Source: a virus (Duplodnaviria > Heunggongvirae > Uroviricota > Caudoviricetes). From it: a DNA stretch of 64,000 nucleotides. Where the stretch lies: the IMG/VR virus record IMGVR_UViG_3300010403_000023. One strand, written 5' to 3'. Both the position numbers and the translations under genes were made by a program. Position 1 is the stretch's first letter. Each line of letters starts with the position of its first letter. The notes under the pieces were generated by a model. That model made no database searches. It was not told the origin of the DNA and saw only the letters and a list, made by a program, of their open reading frames with translations. Below, piece after piece: positions 6,166 through 56,430 of the stretch.

Positions 6166-6698
6166 ATATGATTATGGCACAAGCTATATACACTAAAGAA
6201 ACACAAGACATGCAAACGGGAGAAGTAGTTAAACGGGAGATATTCCGTAAACAGGTAGCCAATACTGAGCAATTCGTCCGGGCCTTTATAGAAGATATGG
6301 GGTTACTGGCAAAATGCTCCGGGGCTGAAAAGGGGGTGGTTCTATGCAGTTTACAGTATTTGGACTACAATACTAACGAATTCATATTAACGCCTGAAAG
6401 AAGGGCTGCGATATGCGATTGTGGGCAAATTAAACCGGATACTGTATCCTCTGCCATTTCCAGGCTGCTAAAAAAGAATATCATCATAAAAAAAAGCGGA
6501 TCAACCTACATTCTTAATCCTAAGATATTCTTTTACGGCAAGGAATTGGAACGGGCAAAAATTGTGGAAACTACAATGGTTTATGTAATTGGTGGTGGTA
6601 AAACTAAACCTAATCCATTATCAAAACGCAGGTCATTTAAAATGGAAATTGCCGGCAGCAGTGATATAGATGCACGGAGCGTCGCCACTGAAGCCTGA
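6111..6698 (+). CDS. RepL-like or winged-helix DNA-binding protein (the start may be at 6168 or 6174)
   Basis: Paralogous to the 61738-62187 product (shared pattern ..L..L.Y......I..T...R.A.......V..A...L.KK.II.K....Y.LNP..F..G...ER); the C-terminal tail SVATEA is encoded by an IGR-1 copy. Confidence 0.5.
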   Translation: MYKLSCKLQQLLYIYVQKNMIMAQAIYTKETQDMQTGEVVKREIFRKQVANTEQFVRAFIEDMGLLAKCSGAEKGVVLCSLQYLDYNTNEFILTPERRAAICDCGQIKPDTVSSAISRLLKKNIIIKKSGSTYILNPKIFFYGKELERAKIVETTMVYVIGGGKTKPNPLSKRRSFKMEIAGSSDIDARSVATEA

Positions 6699-6735
6699 GT
6701 TATCCCAGAACCTCGACCAACAAATAATTAAATAA
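6670..6735 (+). repeat. IGR-1 copy (variant A; core ACGGAGCGTCGCC at 6674-6686; tail ..CGACCAACAAATAAT)
   Basis: Nearly identical to the copy at 10585-10650 (GAACGGAGCGTCGCCACTGAAGCC..GACCAACAAAAAT). Confidence 0.75.
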
Positions 6736-6796
6736 GGATAAAAGGCGATGTAATACAATTCACTCAAATAATTTCTTCACGATCAAACCAAAAAAC

Positions 6797-7078
6797 ATGA
6801 AAAAGAAGCCAGTCGAAAACTACTATACTATTCGCCTTAACCCAAATACCACACAGGGCGGATTTTTCAGAATATACCAGGCAAGGAACGGGAGCATACA
6901 GCTATGTATGGGTAACGGACATATTACTCTTACAATGCAAAATATTTCCGATCTACACCTTGACAGCACACTTTATGAGCTGGAAGAATTTGATACTGTA
7001 GATTTCGATAAGTTTTACAATACGGAAAGGCACAATGAACCACAGTTGAACGGTGCCATCGCAAACCAGGCCCAATAG
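6797..7078 (+). CDS. hypothetical protein (93 aa)
   Basis: ATTCACTCAAATAATTTC box upstream; the C-terminus NGAIANQAQ and the stop are provided by an IGR-1 variant B copy. Confidence 0.5.
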   Translation: MKKKPVENYYTIRLNPNTTQGGFFRIYQARNGSIQLCMGNGHITLTMQNISDLHLDSTLYELEEFDTVDFDKFYNTERHNEPQLNGAIANQAQ

Positions 7079-7105
7079 ATAAACTGGTTCCTGCTGCAAA
7101 AACTT
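7045..7105 (+). repeat. IGR-1 copy (variant B; core AACGGTGCCATCGCAA at 7049-7064; CAATAGATAAA box; CTGCTGCAAAAA tail)
   Basis: Full-length modular element. Confidence 0.8.
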
Positions 7106-7143
7106 TTTTACTCACAATATTTTAAAAAAACACACACAAAAAC

Positions 7144-7674
7144 ATGAAAAAATCATTCACTTTAGACACCATTAATAATGGTTGTTATGGAAGAGAGAAA
7201 GCAGCTACATACTTCGCTAAGAAGAAAACGCTCACTATTACCCATATATTAAACCTGGATATTCCGCTAAAACACAAGTTCTGGTTTGTAAGAAACAACT
7301 GTGATTTAGACCTGAAGCAGAAGCAAATACTGGCTTTGAATTGCGCCCGCATAGTAATGCCCATCTACAATAAAAAGTACCCTAACGACACCAGAATTAC
7401 CGAATGCATAGATGCTACCGGTAAATTTCTGAATGGAGAAATAAGCAGAGATGAATTAATTACTAAAAGAAACGCCGCCGACGCCGCCGCCGCCGACGCC
7501 GCCGCCTACGTCGCCTACGCCGCCGCCTACGCCGCCTACGCCGCCGCCTACGCCGCCGCCTACGCCGCCTACGCCGCCGCCTACGACGCCGCCGACGCCT
7601 ACGCAAAAAGTACAGATGATTATTCCGGTCAACTATTAACGATGCTGAAAAAATATTGCAAGAGCATTAAATAG
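7144..7674 (+). CDS. hypothetical protein with an Ala/Tyr low-complexity repeat (AAYAAYAAAY..)
   Basis: TTTTTTACTCACAATATTTT box upstream; the repeat is encoded by a GCCGCCTAC tandem. Confidence 0.55.
   Translation: MKKSFTLDTINNGCYGREKAATYFAKKKTLTITHILNLDIPLKHKFWFVRNNCDLDLKQKQILALNCARIVMPIYNKKYPNDTRITECIDATGKFLNGEISRDELITKRNAADAAAADAAAYVAYAAAYAAYAAAYAAAYAAYAAAYDAADAYAKSTDDYSGQLLTMLKKYCKSIK
7471..7605 (+). repeat. imperfect tandem repeat of GCC GCC TAC / GCC GCC GAC units (about 135 bp)
   Basis: Direct reading of the sequence. Confidence 0.8.
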
Positions 7675-7704
7675 CATGATAACAGTCTAATAGCTGACTG
7701 ATTC

Positions 7705-7735
7705 CATCATGGAGCGTCGCAAATCAAGCTTAATC
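7705..7735 (+). repeat. IGR-1 copy (variant A with ATGG; core ATGGAGCGTCGCAAATCAAGCT)
   Basis: Core plus AATCAAGCT box. Confidence 0.65.
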
Positions 7736-7769
7736 CTTATTCTTTAGCTAAGTAACAAAATCTTAATGT

Positions 7770-7982
7770 ATGAAACAAATAAAAGCCAAATACCAACTAC
7801 GTTGTACTGAATCTAACCGTATAATAAAGAAAGGAGAAGAAATGATCTTTGATCCTGATACCGGTAAGTGTTATTCAATACTAAGTGATACTGCATGTTA
7901 TTTTATATACAAACAAGCAGGGTATGATTACTTACCACCAGGAGTATATGTAGATAACTATTGTTGGGAAAATAATATTTGA
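7770..7982 (+). CDS. hypothetical protein (70 aa)
   Basis: ORF flanked by an inverted IGR-1 pair. Confidence 0.5.
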   Translation: MKQIKAKYQLRCTESNRIIKKGEEMIFDPDTGKCYSILSDTACYFIYKQAGYDYLPPGVYVDNYCWENNI

Positions 7983-7987
7983 ATACT

Positions 7988-8040
7988 TTTTGCAGCCAGC
8001 GGGAGCCGATCTATCAGCCTGATTTGCGATGGCACCGGTC
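7988..8040 (-). repeat. IGR-1 copy (variant B, reverse, full length: TTTTGCAGCCAGCGGGAGCCGATCTATCAGCCTGATTTGCGATGGCACCGG)
   Basis: The reverse complement matches the forward full element. Confidence 0.8.
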
Positions 8041-8104
8041 CACTTCATCACTACTTTCAATTACATTTTAAAACAAAAAACTTTCACATACAAACACACC
8101 CAAA

Positions 8105-17089: not shown

Positions 17090-17428
17090 CTATTTAATTT
17101 CAGTGGCGACGCTCCGTTCGTCACCTTCACTACTGGCAGATTTTCTCGCCTCAATTAATTTTTGAAGACGGTTCACCTTTTCTTTTTCTTCTTTATTAAA
17201 TTTATCAAATTCGATCATCATTTTTTGCAACTGTCCATAAAAATTCGTTTTCCGGCTTCTGATAAGGATAGCATGTGCGGGATCAATTCCATTAGTTTCG
17301 CACCATTTTATAAATTCTTCTTGAATTTTTAATTGGGCATCCGTAGGCTTTTTGGGACGCAAATCAGGTTTGCTATTTGCGTCATCTAATGCTTTCTGAA
17401 TTGACATACCTATTAGTGCGCCTATCAT
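17090..17428 (-). CDS. hypothetical protein (112 aa); the C-terminal ..ERSVATEIK is encoded by IGR-1
   Basis: The ORF 3' end reads through a reverse IGR-1 core. Confidence 0.5.
   Translation of the reverse strand: MIGALIGMSIQKALDDANSKPDLRPKKPTDAQLKIQEEFIKWCETNGIDPAHAILIRSRKTNFYGQLQKMMIEFDKFNKEEKEKVNRLQKLIEARKSASSEGDERSVATEIK
17102..17135 (-). repeat. IGR-1 copy (variant A, reverse; GGCGACGCTCCGTTCGTCACCTTCACTACT)
   Basis: Flank shared with the 10935 copy. Confidence 0.7.
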
Positions 17429-17664: not shown

Positions 17665-17704
17665 CTTTTCACAATTACCAACTTTTGTGGTAAATATTTT
17701 TGAA

Positions 17705-17760
17705 AGAAGTGATGGTGACGAATGGAGCGTCGCACCTGTGGCTCAATAGATAAGATTAGC
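17705..17760 (+). repeat. IGR-1 copy (variant A; GAAGTGATGGTGACGAATGGAGCGTCGCACCTGTGGCTCAATAGATAAGATTAGC)
   Basis: Shares the 5' flank GAAAGAAGTGATGGTG with the 12530 copy. Confidence 0.75.
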
Positions 17761-17775
17761 TAAGGGCAAATAATT

Positions 17776-20013
17776 TTACTGATACAGTACACCTACTGCT
17801 AATTGTCTTAATGCCATGTCTGGCTTTTGAGTTGCTTTGTCAAGGAATCTTTGACGCCAGCCTAAGTATGCATTAATTCCAAGTAGTCCAATGAGATAGC
17901 AAACTCCGCTATCGTATTCTCTGGTATTCTCTGGTTCAAAATTCATAAGGTCCACTATTACATCACGGCTGTACAGAAATTCTACATTATCCATGAAAGA
18001 GTAGTCATTTATGTGCATCATCCCTGCTGCGATATATTCCCCTATAGTATCAGGACCACCGTTGACTGAACGCTGGGAAGTGAACGGCTTTTGTTTAGCC
18101 CATTCATTGTATGGTTCCAGTATGCCTGTATCTTTATTAACCTGTATCAGGAAGTTGGCTAGCCCCCATTCCTTTAATCGTGTTGCTAATGCCGGTGCGT
18201 TACATTCTATCAGGACATAGCAGCCAAAATAAAGGATAGTCTGAACCACATGCATCAGTGTATCTTTTGGATTTTCTGTTCGGTAATGGTACTCTACTAT
18301 CATGCGTTTGTTCGTTACCTTCTTATTAAACATGGAGTTTAATTCTTGATTTGGCAGAATAAATACCTGCATGGAGTTCTTGCTGCCAACAGCTACGTCT
18401 TTTGCCGCGCTATACTGCGTAGGATCTATGGACATATAAAATGGACTGCCCGGATTAGGCATTAACCTTCCTTTCTTATCCGTGAGCATTTTATTTACGT
18501 GCTGATCCAGAAAACTTTTGGGCGTCCACTCAGGCATATACCATTTCCACAGACCATGCTCTTTTCCCGACATTTTTTCCGTATCGGTCACAGGACACAC
18601 CAATGAAACACCTGGGAATTTATATATATCTCGTATTTCGTCTATTTCTGGAGGAACAGACCACTTAAAATTAAAGTCCATGTATGAGAACGCACCTACA
18701 TTATCTTCTTCGGTAAGTTCGTTTAATTTTGTTGACAATCGTAAATTATCAAATATGGACGCCTCTCCAGCTCCTTCCAGCCAACAATCGGACTCGCTTT
18801 GAGGGTATTGGCGACGATATGATCGTAGTGCCGCAGGATCGTCTTTCTTGGCCTCCATTTGCGCATTCACCACCTTTAATATCTTAGATATAACTGGCTT
18901 ACCATAAATATCGCAGCCTCCAAATATACCATCATAAATAGTAAGCGCCATGCAGATTAATTCAGATTTTGTCGTGCCAGTCTCGGGGTTTATTGTTCGT
19001 AATTTACTTTCGTAATATATCTTTTTTGCAAGCCTAAAACTTTTATCATTAGTATCCGATACGTAGTGGGTGTATATAACATATCCAATGCGAAGTAAGC
19101 CCAGCATTACAGTAGCTATGACATTATTATGCAGAACGGTGAGATCATAACTTTTATCAAGTTTTATTTTACTTTGCTCATCAATATGCGCCACTCTTCT
19201 TTTAGTTCCATCAAATCCATTCCATACGGTAGCTACGGTTTGTATAATAGTTTCCAACGGTTCTGTATTTGATTTTCTCTGGCCTCCACTTTTGGCGCCT
19301 TTTCCGGTATCTTGAAAATATATTGCACTTAAATTATTCCGGTATTCCGGCTTTAAGATTTCCGGTAATCTACGCGCAGCATACAGCACATATCCCATAT
19401 TTGTCTTAGTAGCCTCATCTTCCTTGGTACTCATAATGCTATAATTAGCAGACCGATGAGTTATCGCATCAATCAGCATTAGCAATTCCTGAAACATGGT
19501 AATACCCGTCTTCTTGGGCTTCACTACGTCGCCTCCCTTGGCTACCGTAGTAGTTTTGCATATTTCTATGAAATACGCATAGGTTCGCTGAAATTGACAA
19601 TAGTATCCATACAGGCTTTCCGGTTCCACCTCATTGTAGCAATCGTACATTTGCGCCCACATAAGCACCCCGTAGTGGCCACCAGTTAAGTATGTAGGCT
19701 CCCCATCATTATAAAACCATACGCCATCAAGCATCCGATCAATTTCCCTGTCCCTTAATTCCTTTAATTTAATGGTGTCAACAACGCTTAATGATACTAA
19801 TTCCTTCCCCTCATACTTAGTCGCTTTTGCGTTATCCTCTACTCCTCTGTGCCAATCAAAAAAGAAAGAAGGTATATCTTTAATCATTTCTGCCCTTTTC
19901 CAGTATTGCTCTTTCTTGGGTAGATTATGAAAAAATATTTCTTTCTTTGTGGGCCTAGGTGGGAGTTTATAAACATGTTCCTCTCCAACCTTTATATATT
20001 CTTCGTTATCCAT
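17776..20013 (-). CDS. putative terminase large subunit (745 aa)
   Basis: Size, position next to a ParB-like gene, and a C-terminal region (CYVLIECNAPALATRL) reminiscent of the T4 gp17 nuclease segment ECPVYIELNSTG; no canonical Walker A was identified by eye, so the call is tentative. Confidence 0.4.
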   Translation of the reverse strand: MDNEEYIKVGEEHVYKLPPRPTKKEIFFHNLPKKEQYWKRAEMIKDIPSFFFDWHRGVEDNAKATKYEGKELVSLSVVDTIKLKELRDREIDRMLDGVWFYNDGEPTYLTGGHYGVLMWAQMYDCYNEVEPESLYGYYCQFQRTYAYFIEICKTTTVAKGGDVVKPKKTGITMFQELLMLIDAITHRSANYSIMSTKEDEATKTNMGYVLYAARRLPEILKPEYRNNLSAIYFQDTGKGAKSGGQRKSNTEPLETIIQTVATVWNGFDGTKRRVAHIDEQSKIKLDKSYDLTVLHNNVIATVMLGLLRIGYVIYTHYVSDTNDKSFRLAKKIYYESKLRTINPETGTTKSELICMALTIYDGIFGGCDIYGKPVISKILKVVNAQMEAKKDDPAALRSYRRQYPQSESDCWLEGAGEASIFDNLRLSTKLNELTEEDNVGAFSYMDFNFKWSVPPEIDEIRDIYKFPGVSLVCPVTDTEKMSGKEHGLWKWYMPEWTPKSFLDQHVNKMLTDKKGRLMPNPGSPFYMSIDPTQYSAAKDVAVGSKNSMQVFILPNQELNSMFNKKVTNKRMIVEYHYRTENPKDTLMHVVQTILYFGCYVLIECNAPALATRLKEWGLANFLIQVNKDTGILEPYNEWAKQKPFTSQRSVNGGPDTIGEYIAAGMMHINDYSFMDNVEFLYSRDVIVDLMNFEPENTREYDSGVCYLIGLLGINAYLGWRQRFLDKATQKPDMALRQLAVGVLYQ

Positions 20014-20689
20014 GCATACCTATTTTAATTCGTCTGGCGTTTTCCATGCACACACCGTCCTTGACTGCATTAATTTTTTTATCAATGAATTGGAACTTGA
20101 ATTCTTTCAGTTCATTTATAGCTTTATAAGTGCCTTGATTTCGTATTTCTTTTTCCAGTGCTGTCCTCTTTTTAGAGAGTAGTTCGTATTGGAAGACAGC
20201 CTTAGTGTGCTCCTTTGTATCATAAAAAAATATTATTTCATCAGGTTTTCCTTCTTTTTTGCTTTTATTCTCCTTAGTCATGTACTCCCGATTGGTAATT
20301 GCCAAATTCAGGTCTTCCAGTTGAATATCTATTAGTTTTAGCGCTTTGAATAGTTGGCCGGCGAACTGGATAAGGTATTGTGTTGTTGCTAATCGCACTT
20401 CACGGTCGGTAAGTTCCATTAGGTTCTTACGCATGAAGTCTGGTATCTGAAGGTATTCACATATCCCTTCTTTTTCTTCTTTGCTGTCTTGTCGTAGGAT
20501 TAATAGTGGAGAATCTTCACTGTATGCACATAGAAGGTAGAGTATCTTTTGCTTTGCTTCTTCGGTGGATTGAGAATTATGAAAGATAGGATCAAATATG
20601 GTTAGGTTTATACTATGGAGGTATCCCTGTAGTTTATCTGCAGGTTCGTTCTTTAATAGTAAGCAGTCGTTAAGTATTGATGTTATCAT
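20006..20689 (-). CDS. hypothetical protein (227 aa)
   Basis: ORF start overlaps the TerL-candidate stop. Confidence 0.55.
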   Translation of the reverse strand: MITSILNDCLLLKNEPADKLQGYLHSINLTIFDPIFHNSQSTEEAKQKILYLLCAYSEDSPLLILRQDSKEEKEGICEYLQIPDFMRKNLMELTDREVRLATTQYLIQFAGQLFKALKLIDIQLEDLNLAITNREYMTKENKSKKEGKPDEIIFFYDTKEHTKAVFQYELLSKKRTALEKEIRNQGTYKAINELKEFKFQFIDKKINAVKDGVCMENARRIKIGMHG

Positions 20690-20699
20690 GCGTTTTATT

Positions 20700-20765
20700 T
20701 TTGCAGCAGAGTTTTTGTTTTTCTATTCAGCTTGATTTGCGATGGCGCCGGTCGGCAACATCACA
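20700..20765 (-). repeat. IGR-1 copy (variant B-like, reverse; TTTTGCAGCAGAGTTTTTG..TTCAGCTTGATTTGCGATGGCGCCGG)
   Basis: Full element in reverse orientation. Confidence 0.8.
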
Positions 20766-20774
20766 TTGTGCCAT

Positions 20775-23700
20775 TTATTTATTTACATCGGGTAACCAGT
20801 CCCCTCCGGCACCTGCTCCAGTTGTGGATTGATGAGAGTTTTTGACGTTCAGTTGCTCCCGCAGGAATGGCACCCCACTTTTAATGTGCTCTCCTATTGT
20901 TTTAGGAGTAGCGCGTTTGTTTTCGGGCGCAATCATCTTTCTTATTGGATTTCCTTCATCTGCCGGGTCGGTAACTTTAGCCAGATACGTTATGAGCGCT
21001 GGATCTACTGTACTCTTGGCGAGCTCACCTAAATAGTAATCTCTTTCATGCTTTGAGCCAAATAATTTAGATACCCTTACCGGTTGGCTGGCTAATGGTA
21101 TATCATTCACCAGCCCGGATGCCCCAGCCCACAGCCCTTCACTTATTCCCTGCGGTTCTCCTTTCACAACTTTATCCTTTACCCTTCTTACGGTCGCGCC
21201 GATCTGCATAGCCTGGAATATAGGTGCCTCAATAAACCATGCGGGTATCTTCGCACCGAAAAGTTTCAATCCTAATGCTTCTGCATCATCCTCATCTCTT
21301 TTCTGCCCTGGCTGATAGAATCCTCCGAAATTTTGTGGATTGAAGTAACCTAAAGCCAGTGCAGCTATTCCTAAACTGCCTTTCTTTAAATTACGCAGAA
21401 TGATTTCTTTCTCGTCTGGGGGTAAGTTTTCTATTCCACCGGTAAAAGCCGCATGAATTAATTTAGCTGCCCCAACCGGTACACCATATACATGTGTACC
21501 TATTTCGGCTGCTATGTTTGTAGGCACCTTAACAAAGGGCACCAACCATTGAAGGCTACTGGATATGAGTTTGCTGGGCGCTTTGCCTGTTTTCGGGTCA
21601 ACTTGATCGAAATGATTAATGAGTTTACGCCAGCCTTCCGCTACTTTATTATCCTGCATAAATATAGCTCTATTGGCGTCCTTATAGGAATCCATTAATA
21701 TTGATGTCTGGACCATCGGATCTGTAACATCCACGCCGTTAGCTATGTTGCGCCGGAACCTCCTCTCAATAGAACGTTCAAATATAGTCCTCTTAATAGG
21801 CGCCTTTGCCGCACTGTGGAGTTGCCCAAAAAAATCTATTGCTTCAGGTGGTAATTCGCCGGCCTTACCGAAAAGGACATCTAATTGTGATTTGCCTTGG
21901 CTTTTTTTACTCATTATCTCACTTGCGTCTTTGAGCCCGAGCATTAGCCCATTTTTGTATGCTTTTGCGGTTTCATTGATATTCAGACCTCCACCTTCCC
22001 CTATGGCACCCTTAGCTAATTGAGGTAATATAGCAGAATAAGCGCCACCGACAATATCTTCAAGTGGAGTAGTGGTCAACCTGGTCATTCCAGCCATCAT
22101 CAACTTACCCATCGTAAGGGGATTGGACAGTTTAAAAGCACGTTGCCATTTAATAAACCAATTTTGGTACTTAGCTACTTTGGATAACTGCTTTTCCTGG
22201 TCCCTCTTTAGGTTTATGTCGTATTGCGCCTTAGCCCGGTCTGCGTCTACTTTTAATCTTACCGCTTCACGATCCAATCTACCATTACTAAATAGAGCCG
22301 AAGCATCCGTTGCCTTCTTTCTTTCCGGAGATATATCCAATATGCCGGAATCCATTACAGCCTTATTTATTTCTTTTTCAAGATCCTGCTCATCAATTCC
22401 GGGATTAGCGTTACTTGTTTGTGCAATTGCTTTTTTTATTAAATCTACCAATTGCTCTCCTTTTTCTACACCATATGCTATCACATCTATAGCGTCCGCA
22501 ACCATATGCGGAGTAATAGGAATGGGTGATGAATAGGCTTGATTTTTGCTGGCTTGCCTGATCCGTTCAGCCCATTCACGAAGTTTTGTTGATGCGGTTT
22601 TTTTGTTTTTTAATAGTCCTGTCATTGCCTTACGCTGCAGGTCTATTATTTTCGACTCTGATTCTTTGATATAATTATCAAAAGCCTCCTGTGTATCTTT
22701 TATGTTTTTATGTAACTTCTCAATATCTTCCTGCTGAGTGTCGCTGAGTGATTTACCTTCATTTGCCGTAGCCCTTTTTTCGGAAATCATATTCACAAGA
22801 GAATATTTCCGATCCACCATCATGCGCCGGGAAGCAAGCCCCCTGGCGTTTTCCGTACCTACGGCTTTGTTGATGTCGTAAATCTGCTGCAATTCATCGA
22901 GTACACGCGCTTTTGAAACTTTATTCTCTATGATAGCTCCCTGATTTCCTTCATCTGCGGCTTTGTTGATATTATCATTAAAATTTTGCAATTCTATCTC
23001 CTTGGTATTTTGGTGATGAAGGAGCACAGCATTTTCTACATCAGTTAGAGGACGTGCTTTTTGAGATAATTCCTCAATCAGGTTAAGTGCTGTCTGTGGA
23101 TTGTCTTCTATTTTTTTCTTCGCCTCGTCCCATGTTTCGCCAAATTCTTTGTGCGCTGCGGGAATCTCCTCGCCCAGACCAAATTGCTCCCTTCTCAGGC
23201 GCGTAGTAGCATTTTTTATGCTGGTAATATCCTGTTGAATATGCCAGTCCAGATAGTTAAGCACTTTAGCTTTTGCATTTTCGGACACAGTATCAGAAAC
23301 AGGATTTCCGTCTTTATTTTCAATAACTTCATCCATTATTTCTTTAACGGCATCTTCATGAGATATTTTGCCAGAAAAAATGTCTGCCAGGATGTCCTTT
23401 GCATATTCTTCATTGTCTATTGAGAGTGATGGTTCTGCTTTAAGCGTCTCCGCTTTGAACATTCCGGATTCTTTTAACTTCTCAATATCTTTATCAGAAA
23501 GTTCTTTAGCCTCTTCGCCATATTTTTCTTTTGTTTGACGCAGGCCACGGCGTATTGCTATTTCCAAATTACCTACACCGCGCAAGCCTTCAACTATCCT
23601 TGCAACAAGAAAATCAGATACATGATCCGCTATTTTTGGAGATATACCTAATATTGTAGCGTATGATGCACCTTCATGTTCTTTTTTGTTTTTCGCATAT

Positions 23701-35964: not shown

Positions 35965-35974
35965 TTTTTACTTT

Positions 35975-36050
35975 TTGTTAGCCATCATTCTTATCGCTTG
36001 GCATCGTCCCTTGCGACGCCCCGTTTTAAGGTTCCGAACTACTATCATCT
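35975..36050 (-). repeat. IGR-1 copy (degenerate variant A, reverse; core TTGCGACGCCCCGT at 36011-36024)
   Basis: Left boundary of cassette C; arm shared with the 33900 copy. Confidence 0.8.
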
Positions 36051-36205
36051 TCTCTTTTTTTATTTATCCTCCATATAAATCCAGCAGGAACATCAAACTC
36101 AAATCGTTGTACTAAAATAGGCGTATAATTACCAAATGGATTATAGTCCGGTGGATGGTAAACAACTTTTCTTAATGGTCGCAGTGATTGATCTTCTCTT
36201 TCCAT
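36026..36205 (-). CDS. cassette C small ORF (59 aa; MEREDQSLRPLRKVVYHPPDYNPFG..)
   Basis: Short ORF between inverted IGR-1 copies; same leader and start module as cassettes A and B; speculative. Confidence 0.25.
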   Translation of the reverse strand: MEREDQSLRPLRKVVYHPPDYNPFGNYTPILVQRFEFDVPAGFIWRINKKREDDSSSEP

Positions 36206-36235
36206 AAAATATACAAAGTTTAATCCTTAAATGCA

Positions 36236-36295
36236 GATCAACGGAGCGTCGCAAATCAAGCTGATAGCTATTCTCCGCTGGTAACAAAAATATTT
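36236..36295 (+). repeat. IGR-1 copy (variant A; core at 36239-36253; AATCAAGCTGATAGCTATTCTCCGCTGGTAACAAAAATATTT)
   Basis: Right boundary of cassette C. Confidence 0.85.
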
Positions 36296-39200
36296 AAATC
36301 AATGACGTCGGACTATACACTCCAACCCCACTTATCGGCACCACATTATAAATATCCAGAGTAGGCATATCTATTAACCCTAAGAACTGTCCATTAATTT
36401 TATACAGCAATATTGAACTACCCGGAGCTCCATATCCAAAGTTATCAATAGTAAGAACACCCAGACAGTTACCGAGTGGTTTAAAGTTATATCCTCCTGT
36501 AATTGTTCCACTTACTATGGACTGCATATCCGCAATTACCGGTGTTCCTCCCAGTGTTGGTGTACTGAGCATGATCGCACAATACCTGCCTGTAATAGCC
36601 TGCGTCACCCAGTAAAGCACTGTTGCAAAGTAAACAGTATTCAATCTGTACTGGAATGCCGCACTACCTCCAAGGAGTAATGAGTATGGCACCTTAACCC
36701 CCGTAGATACCGTATATTTAACGACGGTAGCAAACTGACCGCTAAAGTATATGGTATCTACTCCGTCAAATGACGCAGCCCATACATCTTCTGTACCATT
36801 AGCTATTATTGTAGTAGTGCTGATATTATGGGATACCATATCAAATATCGGTATCAGCCCTATCCCTACTGTGCTGGGCCTTCCTCCTATCTGCGTTTCC
36901 ATATCGCCTTCCTGCGTGAAATAGAGCGATCCATTTATCAGGCACCGTGGGCATTTACCTATCAGTTGATCAAACTGGTTGGAATACGTAATCCCGGTAC
37001 CTGAGCCGTACATATCCAGTATCCATAGGCATCCTGTCGTACTTTCTACTACAACTATAGCATTCAGACTCATGCTGGCATAAGTATCAGTAGGGAAGTA
37101 GAGTGAGTAGAGCGATGGAATTAATGTAGGGCTGCTTTCCAATGTTTTAGTATAAGGAATACCGGTAAAACAGTCTGCCACTACCGCATTCAATGATATG
37201 GTCCTGATAACAGTTGGAAATAACGGAGTGGATACATCATAAAATGTAATCAACCCGGTATCTGTTTCTGTATCTGCCATTACGCTACCCTGCTTAATTG
37301 TATGCCACTTCCTTTTATTGGCCGTGGCACCCGGAATTTTACCTATTTCAGCCATGGTATGAAGCCCTATTCCGTACTGACCGTTTGCGGTAGACGGGGG
37401 GCTGGTCATGTTCGCATGATTAGCCCCGTAGAGCAGGTAATTAGCACTTCCTTTATCCAAGATAACCACCGGAGGACCAGTATAGATGGCGCAGTTGGTA
37501 TTTGTAACCACAATATTGTTTATAGTATATCCAGCGCTGAAAGTAATGACTGCTGGTTTTGTGGGAGTCGCATTAAGTGCAGCTATCAGTGCTGTAATAT
37601 CTGCTACTATTCCCAAAGCTACATTACCCCCTCCTATGCCAAAATTCACAACGGCATTTAGCGGAAAATCGGCTGCTGTAACTACAGTAACCACAGGCAG
37701 GCAGTAATCGCTTAGATTCAGTACGTAAAATTGCTTGCCGTTCACGCATACATCTGAGGTGGATAATGTGTCTACAGGAATAGTTCCCGGGATTGAGGCA
37801 GGATTGATAAGATTGCACTGAACCGTACAGTTATCCTGGACAGACCATGTGCCAAATACGTTCCAGCTTGAGTCACCGTTAAGAATGCTCACCACATCAT
37901 TAATCGTATATGCTATACCTATCACGTTCACTCCGGCTGCATCATATATGCGCAACGATGGATTAAATGGAGTAGTGGCGGGACATCCGGTAGGCGGGGT
38001 AGAGCCTCCGACAATCACCATAGTATCTGTTACGATAACAGGCGGTACGACCGGAGTGCTGGATGGGATAATTTTAACAACAGGAATAGTCGTACCCGCA
38101 TTTGCCGGATAAAATCCTACAACGCAATTACCTTCATTAAATGCTGTACCATATACCATCCATGCGGCATTGGAGTTAATGATACTTACCATGTCGTCCG
38201 CTGAAGTTGCTGTACCGATAACAGTCACTCCAGTCGGATCATACACATCGGCTGGGAAGTAACTTAATGGACAGATGGCAGGTGGCAATGACGTATTTTT
38301 ATTCAGGACAACAACCTGAACAGGACAACAACCTGAAATTCCGGATGAAGAGCTTCCGCCATTGGTAAAACTTACCCCTGTGTTTTCATCGCAGCCACAA
38401 TCGCAATTTTCATCCAGATTGGCTAATTTCTGTATTTCAAGTATTAGTTTCGTAACATCAATTCCACAAAGTGGCTGTAAAATACCGGTAATAATTTCGC
38501 TGAAAAGCAGATTTACACGGGTTATTTTATTCATCAGCGAAGCGTCCTCTAATGTACCACATGTTTTTTTAGAGAGTTCATAAAACTTGTGTATCTGGCA
38601 ATTTAGTTTGCATAGATTTATATTGCACAGCACCGAAAAAATAATTCCTATCTGCCCATTTTTATCATATGCTTTATACTGAACCTTTACGCTCACATTA
38701 TCGCCTAACACATAGGTACAATAATCATACAGGAATAACGTAAAACCATTAGCACTATAAGACGAAAAGAAGGTAATATACGGGAATAATCCAGTGCCGC
38801 TATCCCCGTTAGTTGGCTGATTGCCATTTATATCTGGTGGATACTCCAACACCCATCTATTTGTAATAACTGAAGGGATGATTACATTGTTATAAGTAAA
38901 ATTGGTAGTATCAGAACATATTATTTTTGCTGGATTAGTAGTGCAGTCTATTTTTACGGAGGCATTGGCCTTTCCAAAATTTCCGCACGTATTACTATCA
39001 TTCCCATTTGGCCGCGTAAGTAATACTGATTTTGATAAAGCGTAGTATGGGTTAGGATTAAGTGTAGGATCATCAGCAACATATACCGTTACTACATAAG
39101 GGCTATTGGTAGAAAACTCTACCTGGCCACATGGAGGTGTACCGAATGGAGTTGGTATTTGCTCGGGCACCACAATAGTTGACCAAACTACACCATTAAC

Positions 39201-47515: not shown

Positions 47516-48157
47516 CTATGAAGTTACGTAAGTTTTAAACGTCCACGCACTGAGCGTTCCGCCTGGACATAGCGTTCTTATCCAGAAGTGATATGTAGTT
47601 CCGGTACTCAGTCCGGTTATTACCTGGCTGTTCGTACCGGAAGGTATGAATGTACCATTTATTACCGGCGTGGTGCCTGACGTATTATTTATGTATTCCA
47701 CACCATCGGAACCGGGCACTGCGGTCCAACTAAGTGTAGCACCGCTTGATGTAATGCTTCCTGCGGTAATTCCTGTAACCAGCGGACAGAAGTTCGTTAC
47801 AGGCACCAGGTTGCACTTGCCGATATTGTTTGCATAATCAGTAGCATCAATAAAGGAAACTATACCGGTATCCATATCTTTTACTTTCACACATACTTTA
47901 AAGTTAGAGTCTCCAAAGTAAGTAGAATCTACATACACATTACCTATAGGTATGATCGCCTGAGCGCTCTGGTTAGATTCTCCGGTACCTATTTCAGGGG
48001 GTATAGTAGTGGATGGTATCGGTACTTCTTCAGCCTGCATGTTTATTCCCCAGATACCTAAGTACATGTGGTTACAGCTTATGTTCCTAGTCTCACCAGT
48101 AGGATACCATATTGTGAAGTTCTCCTTATATACCTTTACTAATATTCTTAGCTGCAT
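47516..48157 (-). CDS. fibronectin type III-like domain protein (213 aa)
   Basis: C-terminal ATLSWTAVPGSDGVEYIN..GLSTGTTYHFWIRTL matches the Fn3 L.W...G...Y.....T.Y.F.V pattern. Confidence 0.55.
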   Translation of the reverse strand: MQLRILVKVYKENFTIWYPTGETRNISCNHMYLGIWGINMQAEEVPIPSTTIPPEIGTGESNQSAQAIIPIGNVYVDSTYFGDSNFKVCVKVKDMDTGIVSFIDATDYANNIGKCNLVPVTNFCPLVTGITAGSITSSGATLSWTAVPGSDGVEYINNTSGTTPVINGTFIPSGTNSQVITGLSTGTTYHFWIRTLCPGGTLSAWTFKTYVTS

Positions 48158-48221
48158 GGTAGGTTGATTTTAATGCTTTTAAAATGTTTTTGTTTCCATC
48201 TTTTTATCGCTTATCATCTTG

Positions 48222-48240
48222 ATTTGCGACGCTCCGTTCT
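48222..48240 (-). repeat. IGR-1 copy (variant A, reverse; CTTGATTTGCGACGCTCCGTTCTGC)
   Basis: Flank TCCGTTCTGC..CATTTCT.CTACAAT is shared with the copy at 56300. Confidence 0.7.
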
Positions 48241-48265
48241 GCTACATTTCTACTATCGCCTTTTC

Positions 48266-52299: not shown

Positions 52300-52384
52300 A
52301 AGAAAACAAAAATAGTTTTGTTACTTGCTTTATTTGAGAAAAAGTATTTATTTTGTGTGTAGATTTACATTTACTATTTTTGTT

Positions 52385-52460
52385 GGTAGGGGTAAGTAAT
52401 TCTATTTCCCGTCCGTTGCGACGCTCCGTGCAAGGTTCGGGTTTCAATTTAACTTTTTAT
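52385..52460 (-). repeat. IGR-1 copy (variant A, reverse; core at 52425-52438; GCAAGGTTCGGGTTTCAATTTAAC arm)
   Basis: Near-duplicate of the 30860-30920 copy. Confidence 0.85.
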
Positions 52461-52465
52461 ATTTT

Positions 52466-52909
52466 ATGATAGTATGGTTAGGCATTCCTGATAAAAAAGA
52501 AATTTACGATGCTATCCGTGAATTTGAATATTTCGATTCATCATTAAATAAAATAAAAGAATTCAATTTTGCCGGGATGGGGTTATTTCGGATGATGATG
52601 GGCGAAGAACATAAAAAGTATGATTTGGAGCATAGCATTGTTCGGCAACTTAAAGAAGTTGAAGACATTCTTCAATCCTATAATTCAGAACAAGATGCGG
52701 AAAATAATTACGGGAATGACCAAAATAAAAGATGGGAAGATTTATGCGATGATCCCTCAAAAATATTTACAACAGACCTTTTAAAAATACCTTTACTAAG
52801 TGAAGAGCAGTTTAAATTTTGGTTGGAAATATATCAAACTATTAAAGAATATGCAATGTTAAATAGTTCCCCGAACCCCGCACGGAGCGTCGCAACAGGC
52901 GCTGAATAG
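52466..52909 (+). CDS. hypothetical protein (147 aa), first gene of the chaperonin operon; C-terminal NSSPNPARSVATGAE from IGR-1
   Basis: The C-terminal peptide is shared with the cassette A and B ORFs. Confidence 0.5.
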   Translation: MIVWLGIPDKKEIYDAIREFEYFDSSLNKIKEFNFAGMGLFRMMMGEEHKKYDLEHSIVRQLKEVEDILQSYNSEQDAENNYGNDQNKRWEDLCDDPSKIFTTDLLKIPLLSEEQFKFWLEIYQTIKEYAMLNSSPNPARSVATGAE

Positions 52910-52935
52910 CCGCAACCAACCCTGCTGCAAAAAGA
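52861..52935 (+). repeat. IGR-1 copy, most complete forward instance (AAATAGTTCCCCGAACCCCGC-ACGGAGCGTCGCAA-CAGGCGCTGAATAGCCGCAACCAACCCTGCTGCAAAAAGAAA)
   Basis: Contains both arms, the core and the tail. Confidence 0.9.
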
Positions 52936-52944
52936 AACACAAAC

Positions 52945-54663
52945 ATGATCACTCTCCCATACATAGACCACAAAGAGAACAGGAACATAAACCTTCTTAT
53001 AGTAGAACCCTACCCCAAAGAAGCCACAGTAACAGCCGGTGACATATTTATACCTGCTAATATCGGAGATGAATGTGAAGAAGGTAAAGTAATATCTGTC
53101 TGTCCCAGTTCTGAATTTTCTCCCGGTGACCGTGTGGTGTACAAAAAGATGGACCGTGACAAAAAAGAAAACTACGAGACGGTAGAAATGGACGGTAAAA
53201 CCTACGACATCATAGGTGAAAAAGAAGTGTGGGAAGTAAACGGCAAGCCATACAATCGGATATTCGTAGAACCTCTCTCTGTGATAGAAATGGCAGAAGA
53301 CGGCATTGTGCTTCCACAGTCTGCCCAAGGGATTACCCAGAAAGGCATAGTTTATAAAGCACCAGATAATTTCTTTGTAAAAAAGGGAGATACCGTGGAG
53401 TACCGTAAAAACTCCATGCGGATATACTACACTGCGAACGAAAATGGTGTTGATTATGATATTCTATACGAACCGGACATCTTCCTGGTAAACGATAAAG
53501 TATCTCCCCACAAGATCATTGTAAAGATTGACCTTGCAGCCCAGCAGATAAAGCGCCAGACGAATGAGATGGGCATATCACTCTCTCCATTGTTTCAGCG
53601 AATGACCAGGATGCTACAGTACGGCGAAGTCACGGAAATTGGCGAAGAGGCACAAAAGATATACCCGAAGTTGGTTGAAGGCGATACGGCCATCCTGCAT
53701 CACAGCATAGAATACGACGACTACCGGGTATTAAAAATGGATAAAGGAAAGCATGGCACCTTCATTTATGAATATCGTGTTATTAACTGCTTCGACGTTA
53801 CCCACCGGGAGATATTTGGCCGTATATCCAACAAAAAGTTATACGGAAAAATACCTAACTTCAAGATCATTCCCTTCCATAAAAACATCTTCCTAAAATG
53901 GGATTTCGAACTACTTGAAAAAGAGAATTTAGAATCCCAGTTCATTGATATTAATTTCAGCCTGGATGATTGTAAAAACAAAGAAGACCTTGAAAGTACC
54001 GTTACCGCAAAGCGAGAAGCATCCGTAAGAATGTATAAAAGCAAGTGGCAAGGATATCAGGCTGACCTTGCACTTTACAATCCGATGATAAAGCAGGATA
54101 ATGACAAGATGCGGGAAATTGGCGCTAAGATAGATGCACTGAAAAGGGAGGCTGAATCGAATGCAAGATACGTGCAGCAGGATCATTTACTCCGGTGCAA
54201 AATAGCATTTCCGCTTACTATCAACAATGAGGTAATCACCACGTACAAACATCTGTATCCGATCAACATTTTAGGTAAAAAATATCTTATTGCTCACAAA
54301 GACCTTTTAATAGCAAACCGCATGGAAAATACAACGACAGGGTGGCTACCAATAGCCGATCAAGTGCTGGTACAGCCAGTGGAAGAAAAATCAGATACTC
54401 GTATTTTTATTCCTGACAGCGCCAGGGAGAAGCCGCAACAGGCACTCGTAATCGCCGTAGGCAAGGATGTTGACCCTAACGAAATACAGGAAGGAGATAC
54501 CATTTTTCACCGCAAAATATCCGGCGTAGAAATGAACCTGGATGGCACCAATTACCTGATGCTGAGAAGAAATGATATTTTCGCTTCTAACCGTAACATA
54601 AGAAAGATGGAAGAAGAACAAATGTTGAATGGTGCCATCGCCACAGACGGCGATAAACAATAA
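52945..54663 (+). CDS. multi-domain co-chaperonin: about five tandem GroES/Cpn10-like domains in one 572-aa polypeptide
   Basis: Domain 5 (aa 466-547) WLPIADQVLVQPVEEKSDTRIFIPDSAREKPQQALVIAVGKDVDPNEIQEGDTIFHRKISGVEMNLDGTNYLMLRRNDIFA aligns along its length with E. coli GroES; domains 1 (aa 14-100), 2 (104-183), 3 (188-285) and 4 (about 305-457, with an insertion) repeat the same pattern (G.V..VG, GD.V.Y.K, DG..Y.I....DI). Confidence 0.8.
   Translation: MITLPYIDHKENRNINLLIVEPYPKEATVTAGDIFIPANIGDECEEGKVISVCPSSEFSPGDRVVYKKMDRDKKENYETVEMDGKTYDIIGEKEVWEVNGKPYNRIFVEPLSVIEMAEDGIVLPQSAQGITQKGIVYKAPDNFFVKKGDTVEYRKNSMRIYYTANENGVDYDILYEPDIFLVNDKVSPHKIIVKIDLAAQQIKRQTNEMGISLSPLFQRMTRMLQYGEVTEIGEEAQKIYPKLVEGDTAILHHSIEYDDYRVLKMDKGKHGTFIYEYRVINCFDVTHREIFGRISNKKLYGKIPNFKIIPFHKNIFLKWDFELLEKENLESQFIDINFSLDDCKNKEDLESTVTAKREASVRMYKSKWQGYQADLALYNPMIKQDNDKMREIGAKIDALKREAESNARYVQQDHLLRCKIAFPLTINNEVITTYKHLYPINILGKKYLIAHKDLLIANRMENTTTGWLPIADQVLVQPVEEKSDTRIFIPDSAREKPQQALVIAVGKDVDPNEIQEGDTIFHRKISGVEMNLDGTNYLMLRRNDIFASNRNIRKMEEEQMLNGAIATDGDKQ
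54628..54642 (+). repeat. degenerate IGR-1 variant B core (AATGGTGCCATCGCC) encoding the C-terminal NGAIATDGDKQ of the multi-GroES protein
   Basis: Direct reading of the sequence. Confidence 0.45.
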
Positions 54664-54708
54664 AAAGTTCGGACAACAATTTTTAAAAAATAAATTCACA
54701 AATAACTT

Positions 54709-56259
54709 ATGAGCAGTACATTACATTACGGTAAAGAAGGAAGAAAGAAAATACAAGACGGAGTAAATGCAGTAGCCAACGCAGTAAAGGTAACTCTTGG
54801 TGCTAAAGGAAGAAACGTAGCTATCGGTAAAGGCTTCGGACATCTTCCTGAGATCACCAAAGACGGAGTGACCGTAGCTAACTTTGTAACTCAGCTTGCA
54901 GACCCTGTAGAAGATATGGGAGCAATGATGGTAAAGGATGCAGCCAGACAAACTTATCTTCTCGTAGGCGACGGCACCACCACATCCACTATACTTGCAC
55001 AAGCAATATTTAATGAAGGAATAGCAGCTATTGATGCCGGATCGAATCCTATGGACCTGAAAAAAGGCATAGACAAAGCAGTAACCGAAGTAGTGAAGCA
55101 CATAAAAGAAATGTCAATACCCATTTCGGATGATTCGCAATTACTAAGCATAGCCACTATTGCTGCAAATAACGATGTAGAAACCGGAAAAATAGTAGTG
55201 GAAGCAATTCATGCAGCGGGACCAGATGGCCAGGTGTTGATCGGAATTTCTAAGACGTCTAAGACGTCCATAGAAAAAGTAGAAGGTATGACACTGGAAC
55301 GCGGTTACCTGGATGAAAATTTCTGTAACAACAAGGAAAAAATGATGGTGGAACTGGAAAATCCATACATTCTGATATACGACAAGAAAATAACCCGGTT
55401 GAATGATTTTCGCAACATACTGGAAATAAGCAGCAAACAAGGAAAGCCGCTTTTGATAATCGCTGAAGATATTGAAGGAGAGGCGCTATTTACCATGACG
55501 GCAAACGCAGTGAAGGGCTTTAAGTGGGCCGCTATACGCTCCCCATTTGGAGGTACGGAAGAACTGGAAGACATCGCAGCCTTCACCGGTGCCACCGTAG
55601 TAAGTGAATCTAAAGGTCACGTACTGAAAGATATTACCGAAAAATGCTTCGGTACCTGCAATTCTATCACCATAAATAAATTTTCTACAGTCATAGAAGG
55701 TGGTAAAGGTAAAAAACATGATATTACGCAAAGAACTACTCAAATAAGACAGCAATTGGAGGGCTGTACCGATGACTACCAAAAACCTTCGCTGGTCAAG
55801 AGGCTGGCTAAAATTAGCAATGGTGTAGTGGTTATTTACGTAGGTGGTCAGACGGAAGTAGAGATGCTAGAAAAGAAGGCCCGTATTGATGACGCGAAGA
55901 AGGCTACGCTGGCTTCTATTGAAGAAGGTATCGTACCGGGCGGAGGAATGGCGTATCTCAATATATCCGGGCGTATCTCAATATTGGGAAATAAAGATGA
56001 ACTGGTTGGGCAGGATATTATCAAGCGGGCTATTCAGGAACCTTTTAAACAGATAATGAATAACTCTGGTTTAAATCCTGATGAGATTGCTAAGGGTTTA
56101 TCCGATAGCAATACCTGCGGATATAATGTAAAGTCGGAAAAATATGAAGACTTTATCCAAACAGGTATTATTGATCCAGCTAAAGTTTCCAGGGTGGCAC
56201 TTGAAAATGCTGCAAGTGTAGCAGGGATGCTACTTACTACAGAATGTGTAATAGTTTAA
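54709..56259 (+). CDS. groL: chaperonin GroEL/Cpn60 homologue (516 aa)
   Basis: Diagnostic motifs [44 protein letters not shown] and [23 protein letters not shown]; lacks the C-terminal GGM tail. Confidence 0.92.
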
Positions 56260-56273
56260 AATTCTTTTGCTGC

Positions 56274-56309
56274 CGGCGTCGCAAATCTATTGAGCTTGAT
56301 TTGCGACGC
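56274..56309 (+). terminator. 12-bp perfect hairpin GCGTCGCAAATC-tattgagctt-GATTTGCGACGC built from two inverted IGR-1 half cores, 15 nt after the groEL stop
   Basis: Direct reading of the sequence; not followed by a clean T-run. Confidence 0.45.
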
Positions 56310-56354
56310 TCCGTTCTGCGGCATTTCTTCTACAATATTTTCTCATACTAAGAG

Positions 56355-56430
56355 ATAGCATTCCGAAGTTGACCGGTGCCAACGCCACTGAAATTCAATA
56401 GCTGCAACCAACTCTGCTGCAAAAAATTAA
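56355..56430 (+). repeat. IGR-1 copy (variant B; AGATAGCATTCCGAAGTTGACCGGTGCCAACGCCACTGAAATTCAATAGCTGCAACCAACTCTGCTGCAAAAAATT)
   Basis: Full modular element; its tail abuts the stop of the 1655-aa gene. Confidence 0.85.

Follow-up and report, generated by a model that had tools for sequence, protein, structure and literature searches.

Why do several genes of one phage end in the same few peptides, and why does the DNA encoding these peptides also lie in frame inside a gene for a 2748-aa protein? These questions are raised by a repeat of about 85 nt in the IMG/VR virus record IMGVR_UViG_3300010403_000023, of which a stretch of 64,000 nt was analysed here (the window). The window is a partial genome of a novel tailed phage with about 40% G+C. 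A first-pass annotation, made from the letters alone, had proposed that the repeat invaded coding sequence and is tolerated there as peptide. Our analysis suggests a different answer. The repeat is a boundary element that also belongs to bacterial chromosomes of the presumed host family, similar to the repetitive extragenic palindromes (REP) and bacterial interspersed mosaic elements (BIME), and we see about an even chance that it acts as a recombination joint for genes and for the modules of giant proteins.

The element at gene boundaries

The repeat noticed in the first-pass annotation is real and abundant: a profile search (E < 0.01) finds 38 copies in the window, and exact and one-mismatch searches as well as repeat finding agree. 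Each copy consists of box1 (AATAG), (c)TGAA, a core, box3 (AATAG) and an A-rich end, CTGCTGCAAAA; in detail, the layout is (GAGAAAAGTT)AAATAGcaTTCC..., (c)TGAA, core, AAnnnnnGCnnAATAGATaa..., CC(t)CTGCTGCAAAA. The core exists as type A (CGGAGCGTCGC, 22 copies) and as type B (CGGTGCYATCGC or CGGTGC[CT]ATCGC, 16 copies), which is one base longer, and copies lie on both strands. Genes were called simply as longest open reading frames (ORFs), which gave 69 genes in the window. Only 929 of the 3232 element bases are coding (29%), in a window that is 91% coding, and the copies make up about 40% of all its non-coding DNA. Indeed, the stop codon of 26 of the 69 genes lies within an element envelope, 25 of the 69 start at most 45 nt after a copy, and about half of all gene boundaries in the phage are occupied by the element, in either orientation. 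The A-rich end is found 0-25 nt from a start or stop codon. On the forward strand, the TAG of box1, the TGA ahead of the core and the TAG of box3 are conserved stops in different frames, so that an ORF entering a forward copy ends within about 20 codons, with a tail typical of the family.

Neighbouring copies tend to have opposite orientations: in the window this holds for 26 of 35 cases, and in the bacteria described below for 32 of 42 (combined p ~1e-5). In bacteria, the members of adjacent inverted pairs also resemble each other more closely (mean score 24.1) than do those of adjacent direct pairs (13.8) or of pairs taken at random (14.6). This excess fits a loss of direct pairs by deletion as well as a paired function.

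Copies in the window are mutually only 60-80% identical and their conservation is limited to blocks. The spacing between the core and the TAG of box3 differs by 1 nt between copies. A conserved reading frame or coding segment was ruled out by this variation, together with the 1-nt difference between A and B cores, the use of two frames and the opposite orientation of half of the copies.

A rival explanation is that the repeat is a terminator of transcription or a structured non-coding RNA lying between genes. Many single copies have hairpins that involve the core, in particular 56256-56343 on the minus strand (a perfect 11-bp local hairpin, GCGTCGCAAAT[12]ATTTGCGACGC, in an A-core copy directly after the GroEL stop) and 12100-12184, also minus (8 bp, CCGGTGCC[9]GGCGCCGG, in a B-core copy); by reading, TGCTAT of the B core often faces ATAGCA of box1. 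However, neither strand showed a covarying structure in RNAalifold, be it for phage copies (sets of 30 and 36) or for 129 bacterial ones, and the core pairs with an upstream partner in some copies but with a downstream one in others. Since the position of the partner is not constant, the structured-RNA reading, based on copy-specific hairpins and on the complementarity of box1 and B core, was dropped. Rfam returned no match at the gathering threshold and, at E <= 5, only two unrelated weak ones. Sigma-70-type promoters and hairpin-plus-T terminators were not commoner than in shuffled sequence, as judged with a tool that does not include Bacteroidota-type promoters; canonical hairpin-plus-T terminators adjoin several copies and do not lie within them. 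An RNA or terminator role is thus largely excluded, and we give it a very slight chance.

Copies in other phages and in bacterial chromosomes

The core 16-mer is found in 21 viral contigs of IMG/VR, of which about 15 unrelated ones carry the full architecture; A and B cores occur together in one contig, L012. The related contig L025 holds 10 copies in 26.8 kb, including copies at the same junctions as in the window. In a scan of one genome per bacterial species, a core 18-mer (TGAACGGAGCGTCGCAAC) was present at more than 120 loci, a lower bound, where about 17 are expected by chance. Among the matches listed, all lie in Chitinophagaceae or Chitinophagales or in Bacteroidota metagenome-assembled genomes without finer classification, and the genera include Chitinophaga, Segetibacter, Flavihumibacter, Terrimonas, Niabella, Puia, Flavisolibacter and Cnuella. 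The matches include megabase contigs and one complete chromosome. Bacterial copies are built in the same way, aattGCTnAATAG..GATGAA-core-AAC..GCTcAAT..GCtGGt..CAAAAAA, with conservation reaching from about -30 to +58, and 110 of the 120 cores are intergenic among the matches listed. The flanking genes, such as those for inorganic pyrophosphatase, transaldolase, IspD, thiolase and carbamoyl-phosphate synthase, are mutually unrelated (largest cluster 3 of 208), and the genes bracketed by bacterial pairs are housekeeping genes. The element is thus no phage invention but a repeat that belongs to the presumed host family, the Chitinophagaceae. B cores are scarce in the bacterial DNA sampled, where 928 kb contain a single one. 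In the phage there is about one copy per 1.7 kb. The bacterial DNA, sampled as 8-kb pieces each picked because it contains a copy, has about one further copy per 22 kb; per gene, the density in the phage is about tenfold that of the host.

Among relatives of the phage, position and orientation of copies are kept after the terminase gene, after the giant gene, and for a pair between genes of 277 and 602 aa. The A-core copy at 17693-17774 (plus strand), directly after the terminase stop, has its counterpart at the same position and in the same orientation in L026. The B-core copy at 20694-20777 (minus strand), between the stop of the giant gene and the gene 20006-20689, corresponds to an A-core copy at this junction in L025. 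The proteins flanking such junctions are 40-74% identical, whereas the copies themselves are as diverged as any two and the core flips between A and B. This persistence despite core type switching points to selection by a core-binding factor or to gene conversion.

These data also bear on a cis-regulatory explanation, in which some conserved protein of the Chitinophagaceae would recognise the core and the AATAG boxes, for instance a global regulator, an RNA-binding factor, or a protein of the nucleoid or topoisomerase type. The many copies would control or insulate phage transcription units, the 8-kb giant gene would need such a site as well, and recombination would be incidental. Block-wise conservation with a near-invariant core in at least 120 bacterial copies across genera is in line with this, as are the position and orientation kept at orthologous junctions with flanks of only 40-74% identity while the rest of the element has diverged, and the roughly tenfold per-gene density in the phage, expected of a signal at most transcription units. 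There is also a precedent, since sites of the host regulator CtrA are enriched in intergenic regions of Alphaproteobacteria phages (PMC9437464). Yet the two orientations are about equally frequent before gene starts (13 forward and 12 reverse relative to the adjacent gene), neither sigma-70-type promoters nor intrinsic terminators are enriched, and Bacteroidota boxes (-33 TTTG and -7 TAnnTTTG), sought by reading, have a near-match only in the three small-ORF cassettes described below and none that convinces inside the element. Moreover, A and B cores differ by one base in length and still interchange at one junction, which is awkward for a single DNA-binding site, and no binding factor was identified. 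We regard a regulatory site, the main rival to a recombination joint, as possible but on the doubtful side; the two roles are compatible.

Copies inside the giant gene

Internal in-gene copies are found in the window only in the modular giant gene at 20775-29021 (minus strand), whose 2748-aa product has no Pfam match. Two homology searches gave a set of 89 related proteins; the giant homologues measure 1.9-3.6 thousand residues (kaa), some have His_Phos_1, ParB_N or ddrB-ParB domains, and the order of their modules varies.

Two nearly complete in-frame copies had been claimed for this gene. Both are real at the nucleotide level, although the second is shorter than described. With a model built without in-gene copies, the A-core copy at 24371-24459(-) matches over its full length (E=1.5e-11, model positions 6-92), and a model from bacterial copies only still finds it at E=8.7e-10; it encodes EEKLIPSPEVERSVATGAQSDKQTPATKEK (aa ~1520-1550), about 32 codons and not the 12 first given. 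The B-core copy at 25851-25904(-) scores E=8.5e-7 (model positions 7-60) and comprises only the 5' two-thirds of the element (..EELEPTGAIATEAAK.., aa ~1040-1056); the conserved N-terminal module immediately precedes it. Small changes in the first copy have removed the stops of the element both in box1 (AAATAGTTCC to TTAATTCC, AATAG to AATTCC) and in box3 (CAATAGAT to CAATCAGAT, AATAG to AATCAG). The repeat-derived stretches of the giant protein, which include EVERSVATGAQSDK and EPTGAIATEAAK, sit in Glu/Lys/Pro/Ser/Thr-rich segments between alignable modules.

Orthologues that carry the same peptides as ancestral sequence unrelated to the repeat would, according to the first-pass annotation, have spoken against its proposal. 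The homologues do carry the same segments at the same junctions, yet these segments are the intergenic repeat itself. At the window's ..EPTGAIATEAAK.. (TGAIATEAAK), one homologue (P0001) has ..APTDKRSVATAAEP.. (KRSVATAAEP), a second (P0002) ..NGAIATEPQ.. and a third (P0004) ..DEGSVAPAAT..; the other site of the window, site A (EEKLIPSPEVERSVATGAQSDKQTPATK), matches EEKLNQAPTDERSVATKAQPEPETPSQK and EEKLNQAPTDERSVATKAQ elsewhere in P0004. In the DNA of three homologue genes the element itself is present, with identical core nucleotides even where the surrounding linkers no longer align. A second copy in L025 is read in the other frame, as ACG GAG CGT CGC AAC (TERRN) followed by CAAACCCCTGCTAAAAAAGAAAAA. 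Across the 89 proteins, RSVAT occurs 25 times (0.1 expected from shuffles), TERRN 9 times (0) and GAIA[TPN] 16 times (1.1), with up to three repeat-derived motifs per giant homologue. Altogether, among 87 homologues of the giant protein, those of more than 1000 aa contain 63 translated copies (window protein included) in two reading frames. Two contexts are stereotyped, EK.NQAPxDE-RSVAT-DAKPE..ATKE and EK.NQGTEPS-TERRN-EVPSE..ATKEK; in each of them the canonical intergenic sequence is read through, its stops having been opened by changes from AATAG to AATCAG (Asn-Gln) and from CTGAACGG to TCGACGG. In addition, Arg-Ser-Val is encoded as CGG AGC GTC in all three RSVAT sites with DNA sequence, for which the codon usage of the gene itself gives a probability of 0.003-0.008 per site. 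Since the core is read in two frames and with invariant rare codons, it is the DNA that is conserved, and the peptide follows; conservation of the in-gene copies is at the DNA level and not at the peptide level.

The recurrence of such motifs at module ends in dozens of giant proteins, and at several C-termini, could also have meant that the peptide is the functional unit, with ERSVAT/GAIAT as a protease site, a targeting signal or a structural linker and the intergenic copies as degenerate relics. But the same nucleotides are read in the second frame in nine cases (TERRN), the B core gives a different peptide, the codons are invariant against the codon usage of the genes, and half of the copies lie on the non-coding strand or contain stops, the bacterial ones being intergenic. 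This explanation is largely excluded and would be most surprising.

A second stereotyped linker, NAS(T/P)QSEEQQQE..QGSEPEHARTEQAGSE..NSNS.ERS, is encoded at 25350-25493(-) (aa ~1177-1225 of the giant protein) and occurs in 17 of the 89 giant homologues. Repeated DNA was considered for this linker (..EHARTEQAGSE..) and rejected, as it is single-copy DNA in the window.

Module junctions and cassettes

Breaks of homology coincide with both in-gene sites of the window: the alignments of P0002, P0003 and P0004 end at residues 1081-1178, and that of P0005 begins at 1533. When the 63 junctions are compared pairwise, both flanks are common to 46 pairs, the upstream flank alone to 221 and the downstream flank alone to 112. 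A conserved C-terminal module (..LKKQRASQKLE..) is joined via the element to 11 different upstream modules, through A cores in 10 cases and B cores in 8. In the contigs L001-L003, the C-terminal ~800 residues of the giant protein correspond to a separate gene of 948-1257 aa; the giant gene is thus a fusion in the lineage of the window.

The intergenic copies of the window give a similar picture. Similarity of the left half and of the right half are hardly correlated (r = 0.13), and among 18 strongly left-similar and 19 strongly right-similar pairs only one is both; nine of these pairs differ in core type. Left and right halves thus reassort around a near-invariant core of 11-18 nt.

Three units consist of a reverse copy, an unrelated ORF of 56-59 aa and a forward copy (R-ORF-F; 30841-31134, 33897-34194 and 35967-36297), and their small ORFs have no homologue in the relatives. 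The first has A-core arms at 30841-30919 (minus strand, right arm) and at 31048-31134 (plus strand, left arm, directly after the stop of 31136-31969(-)). The second is formed by an A-core copy at 33897-33983(-) and a B-core copy at 34113-34194(+), the left half of which is identical to the A-core copies at 31048 and 36212. In the third, the A-core copies at 35967-36050 (minus strand, right arm, CGGGGCGTCGC) and 36212-36297 (plus strand, left arm) enclose a 59-aa ORF. This third cassette (repeat, ORF, repeat; 329 nt) stands where the same genes are separated by a 3-nt gap in L025 and L026. It has in common with the second cassette two half-arms (inner in one arm, outer in the other) and ~95 nt of the 5' end of the downstream gene, while the two otherwise differ throughout, and the mosaic switches at the cores.

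Some further features were seen around the cassettes. A short ORF at 33725-33895(-) is a partial duplicate of the 5' end of the gene 35179-35964(-), copied along with the right half of the adjacent element. A conserved AAGGATTAAACTTTGTATATTTTATG is located just before the three small ORFs (minus strand; 31045-31075, 34095-34125 and 36207-36237), a few bases ahead of the start codon, and, but for one additional base, resembles the Bacteroidota -7 box (TAnnTTTG); moron-like units without a leader may be what it marks.

In a reading along the lines of the first-pass annotation, the element is a selfish miniature mobile element, comparable to transposons of the miniature inverted-repeat kind (MITEs) or Rickettsia palindromic elements (RPEs), which would multiply in the phage and have inserted between genes, in gene 3' ends and twice in the giant gene. 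Its many copies, in both orientations and with an intergenic bias, and the presence or absence of repeat-flanked cassettes between relatives suit this proposal. So do the in-frame stop-free copies within a gene, as known for RPEs (PMC3733652), and the resemblance of 24371-24459 to the intergenic subfamily of the window itself (D6 80%, I7 72%). Recent transposition would, however, give near-identical copies, and not copies that are 60-80% alike with block conservation. Alignment of the copies revealed no terminal inverted repeats (TIRs) inside the unit and no target-site duplication, the flanks being A-rich, and no transposase is associated. Orthologous intergenic positions are conserved, and the in-gene copies recur at the same junctions in many diverged homologues, in this protein family only. 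It is correct that ORFs run into the repeat and are stopped by its stop codons, and that two copies lie in frame; the part not supported as stated is the invasion. Indeed, the element is not phage-specific, being a host-family repeat as well, and its in-gene copies lie at junctions that are reshuffled among more than 40 giant proteins, which argues for fusion and recombination at a boundary element rather than for a one-off insertion. We therefore hold a selfish element to be unlikely.

A proposed recombination joint for genes and modules

From these patterns we propose that the core may serve as a shared patch of homology or recognition where genes, and modules inside the giant gene, could fuse, insert and exchange. 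Stop-free copies are translated as hydrophilic joints of ~30 residues between the modules of giant polyvalent-type proteins. Peptide tails and linkers would be by-products, tolerated because they are short, hydrophilic and placed at termini or between domains. What upholds the conserved blocks might be a core-binding factor of host or phage, or else continuous gene conversion among copies.

Several points weigh against a recombination joint. Recombination is inferred here from mosaic patterns only, and a purely regulatory role predicts the same placement and conservation, with mosaics as a side effect. No transposase, integrase or REP-associated tyrosine transposase (RAYT) was found among the window ORFs scanned, no recurrent gene family (RAYT or transposase) among 208 flanking ORFs or the bracketed segments in 8-kb samples per genome, and no enzyme or binding protein for the core was identified. 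L025 has only a decayed remnant at site A of the window; in-gene copies are thus not strictly required. L001-L003, which match only the C-terminal module and therefore offer no comparison for the in-gene sites, contain neither core in 22 kb of each; the element is thus dispensable for this phage type. Finally, the host is likely a member of the Chitinophagaceae, as assigned from the location of the 18-mer and not from an isolate.

In a more specific version, the element would be the cis-site of a dedicated recombination system common to Chitinophagaceae and their phages, with a putative recombinase or nuclease acting on the 11-18-nt core and with A and B as compatible dialects. We find this quite improbable. 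If true, the same machinery would shuffle protein modules via a translatable site, as a bacterial-viral analogue of exon shuffling with a defined joint.

If the element does act as a recombination joint, it would represent an undescribed repeat family of 85 nt, in which the sequence and no hairpin is conserved and which a bacterial family shares with its phages. It would provide a sequence-based handle for host assignment of uncultured Chitinophagaceae phages, and a testable answer to how giant polyvalent phage proteins gain and swap modules. Mosaicism of genes and of domains would rely on one and the same joint, a DNA element that can be recognised and that lies at ordinary gene boundaries as well. 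It would be a clean case of DNA-level selection or gene conversion dictating a recurrent peptide; for annotation, shared C-terminal tails and "conserved linker motifs" in such genomes would not be protein features.

Other copies and neighbouring genes

The C-terminal tails quoted in the first-pass annotation are all present; nine had been counted, but eight were named. The gene for a RepL-like protein (6168-6698) ends in ...DARSVATEA, quoted as SVATEA, through an A-core copy at 6644-6733(+) with 55 nt of overlap. The gene 6797-7078 ends in ...LNGAIANQAQ (B core, 7035-7109(+)), and 17090-17428(-) in ...GDERSVATEIK (A core, 17059-17144(-)). For 8105-8596, ...AAEATGAI is encoded by the reverse strand of a B-core copy at 8558-8640(-), with the TAG in GCGATAGCA as stop. 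One tail had been quoted three times, and indeed 30872-31042(-), 33920-34093(-) and 52466-52909 each end in ...NSSPNPARSVAT(D/G).. before the stop, in full NSSPNPARSVATDPS and NSSPNPARSVATGDAKR for the first two, which lie in cassettes, and NSSPNPARSVATGAE for the last (A core, 52850-52938(+)). The eighth, NGAIATDGDKQ, ends the GroES-fusion gene 52945-54663 (...MLNGAIATDGDKQ, B core, 54602-54687(+)), which begins 7 nt after the copy at 52850-52938.

The stops ascribed to the repeat were likewise borne out. The TGA of cTGAacgg ends 685-1098 (ORF overlap), in a copy with a degenerate B core (CGGTGCTAACGC) at 1076-1159(+) found by nhmmer at E=1.1e-11, and 10130-10588, in an A-core copy at 10565-10648(+); the TAG of box3 is the stop of 6797-7078, 30872-31042 and 52466-52909. 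Further stops are held by the A-core copy 2598-2684(-), which is reverse to its flanking genes (stop of 2189-2608), and by copies with a B core at 10031-10105(-) (9775-10053) or a B core variant (CCAACGC) at 11615-11705(+) (10980-11636). An A-core copy at 16164-16248(+) directly follows the stop of 16243-16755(-), and a B core variant at 56354-56432(+) directly follows that of 56427-61394(-), back to back (10 nt) with the hairpin-bearing copy at 56256-56343. Upstream of genes, A-core copies are located at 2096-2179(+), 10 nt before 2189-2608, and at 48180-48264(-), 23 nt before 47516-48157(-). The other A-core copies are 7679-7766(+) (TGGAGCGTCGC), 9673-9736(+) (weak 5' part, E=3.1e-5), 10890-10979(-) and 52373-52461(-), and the other B-core copies 4724-4814(-), 7979-8068(-), 12524-12608(+), 61448-61537(-) and 63440-63528(+). 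An isolated B core (CGGTGCTATCGC) at 309-320(-), with an AATAGC box upstream and no recognisable 3' half, lies under the profile threshold; it is probably what is left of a decayed copy, within ORF 47-340 or at its end.

The most similar inverted pair, formed by B-core copies at 12954-13036(+) and 14160-14248(-), encloses the gene for a protein with a ParB helix-turn-helix (HTH) domain (13106-14158(-)). The second of these copies lies 2 nt upstream of the ParB-HTH start (14158) and holds the stop of 14234-16144. The pair prompted a ParB/parS reading, which was dropped because the element is abundant in host chromosomes. Together with the RepL-like replication protein, the ParB-HTH protein represents plasmid-style functions. 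Directly 3' of the first copy, at ~13037-13070 and between convergent plus and minus gene blocks, a perfect hairpin (AAACCGCCTTCA[ctgttaca]TGAAGGCGGTTT) resembles an ordinary bidirectional terminator, with a weak Rfam match similar to counter-transcribed RNA (ctRNA; E=0.75). In L044, L089 and L011/L019/L023/L024, hairpins of a similar kind come after the A-rich end of copies.

The gene content further includes a large terminase (17776-20013(-)), a tail-fibre protein, and the GroES-fusion protein with GroEL. Megablast of 24 kb against INPHARED (50,697 deposited phages) gave no nucleotide match, and thus no near phage. The terminase shares only 22-29% identity with its counterparts in Flavobacterium and Cellulophaga phages, a kinship that places the phage among viruses of Bacteroidota. 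A tRNA scan found nothing. At 52945-56259, a 572-aa protein that is GroES-like over its last ~80 residues is followed by a full GroEL; the phage thus encodes a chaperonin pair whose co-chaperonin has an unusual N-terminal extension. The ORF 7144-7674, with a Pfam Imm5 match, contains a periodic 9/12-nt array (ACGCCGCCG...) at 7463-7623, which encodes a Thr/Pro-rich repeat near the C-terminus. Downstream of the giant gene of L025, at 20349-24944, lie genes for a Fic protein, for a transposase of the IS1595 family, and for an N6/N4 methyltransferase accompanied by a restriction enzyme of the MvaI/BcnI type.

Comparison with known systems

In the literature, we found no paper with the core sequence, with a Chitinophagaceae or phage repeat of this kind, or with the idea of a linker in polyvalent proteins, an absence that does not prove novelty. 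In its distribution, the element resembles REP/BIME and the REPIN-RAYT systems of Proteobacteria (REPIN, REP doublet forming hairpins), which are also high-copy extragenic repeats among housekeeping genes, in both orientations and with neighbours preferentially inverted; occasional intragenic units and long persistence in a bacterial lineage are shared with REP/BIME as well. In contrast to REP (imperfect palindromes of 20-40 nt that form a stem-loop, conserved within species), the element is ~85 nt long, lacks a conserved palindrome and is conserved across genera. No RAYT or transposase was found beside its copies in the 8-kb samples, and it is common to phages, at a density about tenfold higher. 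It also differs from MITEs, as it has no TIRs, no target-site duplications and no near-identical copies.

RPEs were reportedly described by Ogata and colleagues in 2000 as in-frame selfish DNA in protein-coding genes. Like the element, they are interspersed repeats that also occur in frame and stop-free inside protein genes, where they are translated as a hydrophilic segment. However, RPEs are palindromic and scattered over many unrelated genes, whereas the element is non-palindromic and its translated copies are confined to one modular giant phage protein family, at recurrent module junctions. RPEs have also been treated as CGTC-type repeats, with intragenic units noted (PMC3733652).

Among phages, the element is comparable to the promoter early stem-loop (PeSL) elements and to the boundary or linker sequences of lambdoid phages. 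In these systems too, small non-homologous ORFs are bordered by a repeated intergenic motif, relatives differ in the cassettes they possess, and the motif has been proposed as a homology patch for modular shuffling. PeSLs are said to be mobile regulatory cassettes of T4-type phages (Arbiol and colleagues, 2010). They are direct repeats with an early promoter and a stem-loop and are phage-specific, while the element forms mostly inverted pairs without a recognised promoter or terminator, is common to host chromosomes and also lies inside coding sequence. With the attC sites of integrons, the element has in common that short sites lie at gene boundaries and that unrelated ORFs are exchanged around them. 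An attC site, on the other hand, is a structure-conserved imperfect palindrome with R''/L''-L'/R' boxes, a single orientation and an adjacent integrase, none of which the element has.

Polyvalent proteins of phages and conjugative elements were reportedly defined by Iyer and colleagues in 2017, and we know of no conserved DNA element described at their module joints. The giant gene of the window and its homologues resemble them in organisation, as chains of 1.9-3.6 kaa built from varied modules in differing order.

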